The notes below the pieces were generated by a model, which did not search any database, had not been told where the DNA came from, and worked only from the letters and a program-made list of their open reading frames with translations. The translations under genes and the position numbers were made by a program. This document shows, piece after piece, positions 4,633-5,835 of a stretch of DNA of 7,513 nucleotides. Numbering within the stretch: the stretch's first letter is position 1; the number at the start of each line of letters is the position of its first letter. The stretch is from a virus (Duplodnaviria > Heunggongvirae > Uroviricota > Caudoviricetes), in IMG/VR virus record IMGVR_UViG_2698536348_000008, positions 1-7,513 of that record. One strand, given 5' to 3'.

Positions 4633-4636
4633 TTAG
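4633..4636. repeat. IS5 target-site duplication, left copy (TTAG)
   Basis: TTAG immediately outside the IS5 left terminus; an identical TTAG flanks the right terminus. IS5 makes 4-bp duplications at YTAR-type targets (established). Confidence 0.85.
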
Positions 4637-4652
4637 GGAAGGTGCGAACAAG
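4637..4652. repeat. IS5 left terminal inverted repeat
   Basis: GGAAGGTGCGAACAAG; its partner at 5816-5831 reverse-complements to GGAAGGTGCGAATAAG. Confidence 0.9.
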
Positions 4653-4704
4653 TTCCTGATATGAGATCATCATATTCATCCGGAGCGCATCCCAGAGGGA
4701 CATC

Positions 4705-5685
4705 ATGAGCCATCAACTCACCTTCGCCGATAGTGAATTCAGCACTAAGCGCCGTCAGACCCGAAAAGAGATTTTCCTCTCCCGCATGGAGCAGATTTTG
4801 CCATGGCAGAATATGACCGCTGTCATCGAGCCGTTTTATCCCAAGGCGGGCAATGGCCGACGGCCCTATCCGCTGGAGACCATGCTGCGTATTCACTGCA
4901 TGCAGCATTGGTACAACCTGAGCGACGGTGCCATGGAAGATGCCCTGTACGAAATCGCCTCCATGCGCCTGTTTGCCCGATTATCCCTGGATAGCGCCCT
5001 GCCGGATCGCACCACCATCATGAATTTCCGCCACCTGCTCGAGCAGCATCAACTGGCCCGTCAATTGTTCAAGGCCATCAATCGCTGGCTGGCCGAAGCA
5101 GGCGTCATGATGACCCAAGGCACTTTGGTGGATGCCACCATCATTGAGGCACCCAGCTCTACCAAGAACAAAGAGCAGCAACGCGATCCGGAGATGCATC
5201 AGACCAAGAAAGGCAATCAGTGGCACTTTGGCATGAAGGCCCACATTGGTGTCGATGCCAAGAGTGGCCTGACCCACAGCCTGGTCACCACCGCGGCCAA
5301 CGAGCATGACCTCAATCAGCTGGGTAATCTGCTTCATGGAGAGGAGCAATTTGTCTCAGCCGATGCCGGCTATCAAGGAGCGCCACAGCGCGAGGAGCTG
5401 GCCGAGGTGGATGTGGACTGGCTGATCGCCGAGCGTCCCGGCAAGGTAAAAACCTTGAAGCAGCATCCGCGCAAGAACAAAACGGCCATCAACATCGAAT
5501 ACATGAAAGCCAGCATCCGTGCCAAGGTAGAGCACCCGTTTCGCATCATCAAGCGGCAGTTCGGCTTCGTGAAAGCCAGATACAAGGGGCTGCTGAAAAA
5601 CGATAACCAACTGGCGATGTTATTCACCCTGGCCAACCTGTTTCGGGTGGACCAAATGATACGTCAGTGGGAGAGATCTCACTAA
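4705..5685 (+). CDS. insH: IS5 transposase InsH
   Basis: 326-aa translation [37 protein letters not shown] ... RQWERSH matches IS5 InsH almost residue-for-residue (memory). Confidence 0.95.
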
Positions 5686-5815
5686 AAACTGGGGATAACG
5701 CCTTAAATGGCGAAGAAACGGTCTAAATAGGCTGATTCAAGGCATTTACGGGAGAAAAAATCGGCTCAAACATGAAGAAATGAAATGACTGAGTCAGCCG
5801 AGAAGAATTTCCCCG

Positions 5816-5831
5816 CTTATTCGCACCTTCC
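5816..5831. repeat. IS5 right terminal inverted repeat
   Basis: CTTATTCGCACCTTCC, inverted complement of the left terminus with one mismatch. Confidence 0.9.
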
Positions 5832-5835
5832 TTAG
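5832..5835. repeat. IS5 target-site duplication, right copy (TTAG)
   Basis: TTAG immediately outside the IS5 right terminus, identical to 4633-4636. Confidence 0.85.

Follow-up and report, generated by a model that had tools for sequence, protein, structure and literature searches.

Transposition of an IS5-family element into a gene for a predicted WYL-domain protein behind the Q antiterminator gene of a lambdoid prophage

Disruption of a prophage accessory gene by an insertion sequence (IS) is, in kind, a well-known and ordinary form of pseudogenization, and the closest described case to the one reported here is that of the lambdoid prophage DLP12, where IS5B interrupts nmpC, a porin gene that adjoins the Q homologue quuD. 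The stretch of DNA analysed in the present study, hereafter called the window, is a 7,513-nucleotide sequence constituting positions 1 to 7,513 of the IMG/VR virus record IMGVR_UViG_2698536348_000008, which is assigned to Caudoviricetes. In the window, a complete IS5-family element lies inside a gene that starts shortly after an antiterminator Q gene, and the original prediction, which had been made from the letters of the window alone, likened this arrangement to that of DLP12. The parallel proved to be accurate: the two elements share the IS family, the length of 1195 bp, and the terminal repeats; both are flanked by 4-bp duplications of the YTAR type, CTAA in DLP12 and TTAG in the window; and both targets are accessory genes beside the Q homologue of a lambdoid prophage. 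The two cases differ, however, in orientation and in the nature of the target. nmpC and quuD are carried on opposite strands, and nmpC was struck near its 3′ end, whereas the gene in the window is co-oriented with Q and was struck in its middle, and its product, a WYL-domain protein, is unrelated to the porin.

The comparisons described below make it very probable that the transposition of an ISKpn26-like member of the IS5 family split a single putative cargo gene behind Q, in an interdomain linker, with loss of the full-length protein. In the mechanism we propose, the 1195-bp element would have entered a TTAG site of an AT-rich, 205-codon putative cargo gene directly behind the Q antiterminator gene of the lambdoid prophage, duplicating the TTAG and splitting the gene within codon 80, in what is predicted to be a disordered linker between a WYL domain and a C-terminal domain. 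The full-length protein could then no longer be produced: the 5′ part would end after 79 native and 7 IS-encoded residues, and the 3′ part would be deprived of its start and ribosome-binding site. RefSeq already contains the element as well as the intact gene, and only this particular allele is absent from the collections searched.

The inserted element and its target site

The element occupies positions 4637-5831 on the plus strand, between one TTAG at 4633-4636 and another at 5832-5835. Its left terminal inverted repeat (4637-4652), GGAAGGTGCGAACAAG, is identical to the end of K-12 IS5, and the right one (5816-5831), which reads GGAAGGTGCGAATAAG as the reverse complement, matches it at 15 of 16 positions. 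These 16-bp terminal repeats are the same as the ends of K-12 IS5 and contain GGAAGGTGCGAA, the start typical of the IS5 group. An intact transposase gene of 326 amino acids (aa), at 4705-5685 on the plus strand and co-oriented with the disrupted gene, matched the NCBIfam IS5 family model NF033581 at 366.8 bits, against a cut-off of 140 (E=7.5e-110), as well as the Pfam families DDE_Tnp_1 (E=4.5e-35) and DUF772 (E=3.2e-21). The original prediction of a complete IS5 with a TTAG duplication stood as far as the element, its ends, and the duplication are concerned, but the name had to be corrected. Isoforms of an IS are conventionally those with roughly ≥95% DNA identity to the reference element. 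The element in the window is 94.0% identical to IS5B of MG1655, the copy in nmpC of DLP12, with 72 mismatches over 1195 positions, equal length, and no indels, and by this comparison it falls outside IS5 sensu stricto, the K-12 element, so that the name IS5 is correct for the family level only. E. coli genomes carry full-length copies of the element at 99.7% identity, and the transposases of these copies are named “IS5-like element ISKpn26 family” in RefSeq. The differences from K-12 IS5B are unevenly distributed, as 45 of the 72 are within the first 300 bp and only 1 is within the last 195 bp, and the element is 95.8% identical to a 1196-bp copy annotated as ISKpn26 in E. coli SCPM-O-B-7615. 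Because the differences cluster at the 5′ end, and given the identity to the SCPM-O-B-7615 copy, the element looks like an intermediate or a mosaic of IS5 and ISKpn26. We suggest that it be annotated as an IS5-like element of the ISKpn26 family, not as IS5.

IS5 prefers YTAR targets in AT-rich DNA. The TTAG duplicated in the window is of this type, as is the CTAA duplicated by K-12 IS5B, and it is one of only four TTAG sites in the disrupted gene, whose guanine plus cytosine (GC) content, at 39.5%, is lower than that of the leftward part of the prophage (51.7%) and of the element itself (53.6%). The empty site is found in E. coli S88. Positions 576-4636 of the window align with positions 2253-6313 of the S88 locus (L001), and positions 5832-6726 align with positions 6310-7205. 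The two blocks share exactly the TTAG. The tetranucleotide is therefore single in the empty site, and its doubling in the window is a genuine target-site duplication, in agreement with the bona fide transposition that had been claimed. Given that IS5-family elements are multi-copy repeats, with a median of 2 places and a maximum of 43 in a carrier genome, one could alternatively suppose that an assembler collapsing repeats misplaced an IS copy here, and it fits this supposition that the exact junction was found neither in any complete E. coli genome nor in any GTDB species representative. When the same insertion allele was looked for, none of the complete E. coli genomes covered ≥80% of positions 4324-6300 of the window, and the best flank identity was 97.8%; in addition, the 32-nt string across the left junction was absent from the GTDB species representatives. 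Against an artefact, however, stand the perfect duplication of 4 bp that are single-copy in the empty site, the YTAR-type target, and the exact IS termini on both sides. These features are the signature of real transposition rather than of a mis-join, and an assembly artefact is therefore, in our judgment, very improbable.

One gene or two at the insertion site

When positions 4637-5835, which comprise the element and one TTAG (1199 bp), were removed in silico, the ATG at 4399 came in frame with the stop codon at 6213-6215, with no stop codon in between. One continuous reading frame over 4399-6215 is restored in this manner, just as had been predicted, and its translation gave a product of 205 aa in which MHYGDL is followed directly by EVKAYETMQ at the junction. 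The insertion point lies within codon 80, between L79 and E80. The uninterrupted homologue of about 205 aa that the original prediction proposed to look for does exist at the same locus. The excised locus of 777 bp is uninterrupted in 51 complete E. coli chromosomes at 99.5-100% identity (exactly 100% in at least 21), and its counterpart in S88, WP_000360285.1, is one 205-aa coding sequence (CDS) annotated as “WYL domain-containing protein”, the start of which is 75 bp past the antiterminator Q gene. The order of the preceding genes in S88, i.e., Dam methylase, LexA-like, RusA, KilA-N, DUF968, and Q, is that of the window. A variant with 72% identity, also of 205 aa, is encoded at the same post-Q place in further E. 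coli prophages, including that of UPEC 26-1. The restored locus found no match in the phage GenBank collection when searched by megablast.

The restored protein also matches the family model PHROG 8498 with its residues 1-205 over all 205 positions (E=2.9e-126). It is the same full-length protein as PHROG 8498 and WP_000360285.1, with DNA that is 100% identical after IS removal, and the insertion is the only difference. An exhaustive profile search yielded 957 representative clusters, 607 of them at E≤1e-10 and 192 at E≤1e-30, whose proteins are nearly all 187-210 aa long and match end to end in a single chain.

These results leave virtually no chance that two independent small genes, of about 79 aa and 119 aa, happen to flank the element and that the restored frame is a coincidence. 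What might be taken to favor such a pair of genes is the RefSeq annotation of five complete E. coli genomes, in which two adjacent CDSs are found at the locus. Those split annotations trace back, however, to one of two lesions away from the IS junction: a nonsense codon, K119* (nt 355 A>T), or a frameshift at around codon 125 in which a run of eight A residues has gained a ninth (A8→A9). Moreover, of 52 complete E. coli genomes that carry a ≥99% allele, 46 have one feature annotated under the locus, and in hundreds of distant relatives a single polypeptide of about 195 aa spans the two halves. The uninterrupted locus, the CDS of S88, the single-chain relatives, and the origin of the split annotations together rule out the two-gene reading. 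Neither separate adjacent genes corresponding to the two fragments nor a frame break at the junction was encountered in the relatives, the known splits lying elsewhere in the gene. As judged from sequence comparison, the disrupted locus is one gene, and the view of a single gene interrupted by insertion is borne out by the S88 CDS, the 607 clusters, and the full-length PHROG match. For the annotation, we suggest treating the ORFs 4399-4659 and 5856-6215 as a single disrupted gene.

Predicted domains and fate of the interrupted gene

The structure of the intact 205-aa protein was modeled with AlphaFold from an alignment of 125 sequences, giving a mean predicted local distance difference test (pLDDT) score of 86. 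In the model, an N-terminal helix and a five-stranded barrel (residues 1-65) are followed by a linker (around 66-84) and a C-terminal alpha/beta domain (around 85-204). The pLDDT exceeds 90 in residues 1-65, while the linker is of low confidence and falls below 50 at 69-75. A single helix at residues 3-14 directly precedes the barrel. The barrel is Sm/SH3-like and, in the predicted model, can be superposed on solved WYL domains. The match of the window protein itself to the Pfam WYL family PF13280 (residues 8-64, E=0.0085) scored 16.5 bits, which is under the gathering cut-off of 21.8, but 44 of the 125 family members matched the same family at E≤0.01, with a best E value of 4.8e-8. A search of the PDB with the family profile detected the WYL domain of DriD (E=1e-4), and the family residues Y23, S27, and R33, which are invariant or ≥90% conserved, align with Y168, S172, and R178 of DriD. 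In the crystal structures of DriD, these three residues bond to the phosphates of single-stranded DNA (ssDNA) (PMC9186387). R176 of DriD is not conserved in the family, and the protein studied here has T31 at that position. From the profile matches and the predicted fold, the N-terminal barrel is assigned as a WYL domain. The C-terminal domain showed no convincing structural or sequence relative and no significant match to WCX/dimer domains. Scans of the protein against Pfam and NCBIfam gave no match to a helix-turn-helix (HTH) family, and NCBIfam holds no family for it.

In terms of this predicted layout, the element separated the two domains at the linker. The 5′ fragment (4399-4636, plus strand, with the start called by RefSeq in S88) consists of codons 1-79 and the first base of codon 80, covering the complete WYL barrel and the greater part of the linker. 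The 3′ fragment (5836-6215, plus strand), delimited by the excision and translation, runs from the remainder of codon 80 to the stop codon and encodes the C-terminal domain. The present 5′ ORF continues into the element and stops at 4657-4659, adding GKVRTSS to the 79 native residues to give 86 aa, and the longest ORF left in the 3′ fragment begins at 5856, which corresponds to Met87 of the intact protein. The native start codon and Shine-Dalgarno sequence would now drive the synthesis of the 86-aa product holding the whole WYL barrel.

The insertion most likely caused a loss of function of the gene because every relative keeps both domains. It might instead have truncated the protein to a stand-alone WYL domain of 79 aa with a 7-aa tail, which retains ligand binding and hence some partial or altered activity. 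Such an outcome would be compatible with the break in the interdomain linker, which leaves the well-predicted barrel whole, and stand-alone WYL/Sm-like phage proteins of about 60-80 aa do exist, among them the 71-aa “WYL domain-containing protein” of Aeromonas phage LAh_9, although these were found only as weak matches in BFVD. The conservation of the C-terminal domain in all close and distant relatives, however, argues that it is needed, and the other lesions of the gene, i.e., K119*, the frameshift at around codon 125, and a 165-bp deletion in the WYL domain, are scattered in a manner that fits simple decay better. We consider an active truncated product improbable, and loss of function is the preferred explanation.

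The last of these lesions comes from E. coli SCPM-O-B-7615 (NZ_CP144926.1), in which a second IS5-family copy, 1196 bp long (positions 5805-7000 of the extracted locus, L008), resides in the same gene with reversed orientation. On the right it adjoins the very TTAG that was the target in the window, on the left it adjoins a TTAG 165 bp upstream (4468-4471 in the window), and the 165 bp of DNA between the two sites, inside the WYL domain, have been deleted. This arrangement suggests an adjacent deletion or a recombination between two insertions, and the insertion is independent of that in the window. At least four independent lesions (those of the window and SCPM-O-B-7615, K119*, and A9) are thus spread over about 53 carriers; 46 of the 52 alleles from complete genomes appear intact.

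The recurrence of lesions, including an independent ISKpn26 event that involves a different isoform in the opposite orientation at the same TTAG, along with nonsense and frameshift alleles, raises the question of whether the locus is a hot spot or is under positive selection, in which case the gene would impose a cost or toxicity on the lysogen and would be inactivated again and again, this TTAG being a preferred target of IS5-family elements. The numbers are small, however, and the carriers of the nonsense codon may be clonal. The YTAR preference, together with the four TTAG sites in the gene, could by itself explain the reuse of a target, and the intactness of 46 of 52 alleles, with 100-99.5% conservation, indicates that the gene is usually kept. 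In addition, decay is common in prophage accessory genes. A hot spot or selection therefore seems rather unlikely, though less so than a functional truncated protein, and the lesions are compatible with a dispensable prophage gene decaying in the ordinary way, together with the YTAR preference of IS5.

Flanking signals, neighbourhood, and possible role of the intact protein

The gene for the late-gene regulator Q, an antiterminator, is upstream of the disrupted gene and occupies 3937-4323 on the plus strand (Pfam PF06530, Phage_antitermQ, E=1.5e-47) and corresponds to the “antiterminator Q family protein” of S88. For the disrupted gene, a candidate cargo gene (moron), the post-Q position is conserved in S88, UPEC 26-1, and SCPM-O-B-7615, and the GC content is 39.5% vs 51.7%. 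Between Q and its start lie 75 bp. In this region, a strong RNA hairpin at 4355-4403 (plus strand) engages the disrupted gene's Shine-Dalgarno sequence, GGAGG, and start codon in pairing, with a minimum free energy (MFE) of -22.8 kcal/mol (z=-5.9), and none of 200 shuffled sequences folded as well. The stem is kept in the variant with 72% identity, where G-U wobble pairs are changed into Watson-Crick pairs. The hairpin may control the translation of the WYL gene. A promoter scan between Q and the gene detected no convincing pR′ or gene-specific promoter, and a comparative paper on pR′ contains no discussion of ORFs or IS elements in this interval. Downstream of the gene, a terminator-like GC hairpin with a T run (aaacccgc-cactga-gcgggtttttt) is situated at 6345-6369 on the plus strand (MFE of -13.8 kcal/mol, z=-3.1); it was read directly from the sequence and was not listed by the consensus scan.

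Beyond this site, a small ORF at 6468-6689 (plus strand), encoding 73 aa (65 aa in RefSeq), follows the WYL gene in all the related prophages examined. It showed a weak, below-threshold match to a TrmB-like HTH (E=0.0034), and another terminator-like site then occurs at 6676-6693. Homology with S88 ends at 6726, and in the remaining part of the window (6727-7513), an ORF for a DNA methyltransferase, with a DPPY motif, begins at around 6840 on the plus strand and runs off the end. The corresponding position is occupied by a DNA methyltransferase in UPEC 26-1 and by an HTH protein in S88, which indicates modular exchange. The left end of the window (1-575) is likewise mosaic relative to S88, since 102-576 is only 87% identical, in a region that is PerC-family in S88, compared with 98.8% for 576-4636.

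As for the role of the intact protein, PADLOC gave only weak matches to CRISPR-associated WYL proteins (E of 1e-3 and above), and therefore the gene is not a known component of a defence system. A literature search returned no paper mentioning WP_000360285, WP_024236046, or phrog_8498, and in a paper on Gifsy-1, WYL appears only among the references. The intact protein plausibly works as a WYL-type ligand sensor for nucleic acid, probably ssDNA, as suggested by the conserved residues shared with DriD. The protein cannot itself be a transcription factor of the WYL type because it has no DNA-binding HTH domain. Members of the family also occur in other settings, and a place behind Q is thus not a fixed feature of the family: the gene for a protein with 32% identity (P0009; positions 6001-6591 of a contig from Logan SRR19859942, L004) has a DUF4124 gene on one side and a Phage_pRha gene on the other, in surroundings that look phage-like.

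The target of the insertion is of greater interest than the insertion itself, being part of a widespread and unstudied phage family of HTH-less WYL proteins, which is found post-Q here, and natural intact and knock-out alleles of a WYL gene now exist for comparison. Because DriD-type residues for contacting ssDNA are kept without the means of binding promoter DNA, one could speculate that this family of about 600 clusters, encoded here after Q and behind a hairpin that would sequester the ribosome-binding site, serves the phage as a decoy or a sensor, and that the knock-outs reflect selection in lysogens. We regard this idea as a long shot. If true, the decoy could soak up the ssDNA signal that de-represses the host cyclic-oligonucleotide-based antiphage signaling system (CBASS) or bacteriophage exclusion (BREX) system through CapW or BrxR, or the protein could act as an exclusion factor.

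Among known proteins, the intact gene product can be compared with the ssDNA-sensing regulators composed of winged HTH, WYL, and WCX domains, i.e., DriD, CapW, BrxR, and PafBC. Those regulators have a winged HTH domain at the N terminus, whereas the present protein begins with the WYL barrel; its C-terminal domain lacks a significant match to the WCX/dimer domains that characterize them; and it is encoded in a prophage after Q, not beside a defence operon. The protein may thus act in the manner of a WYL sensor while standing outside this regulator family.
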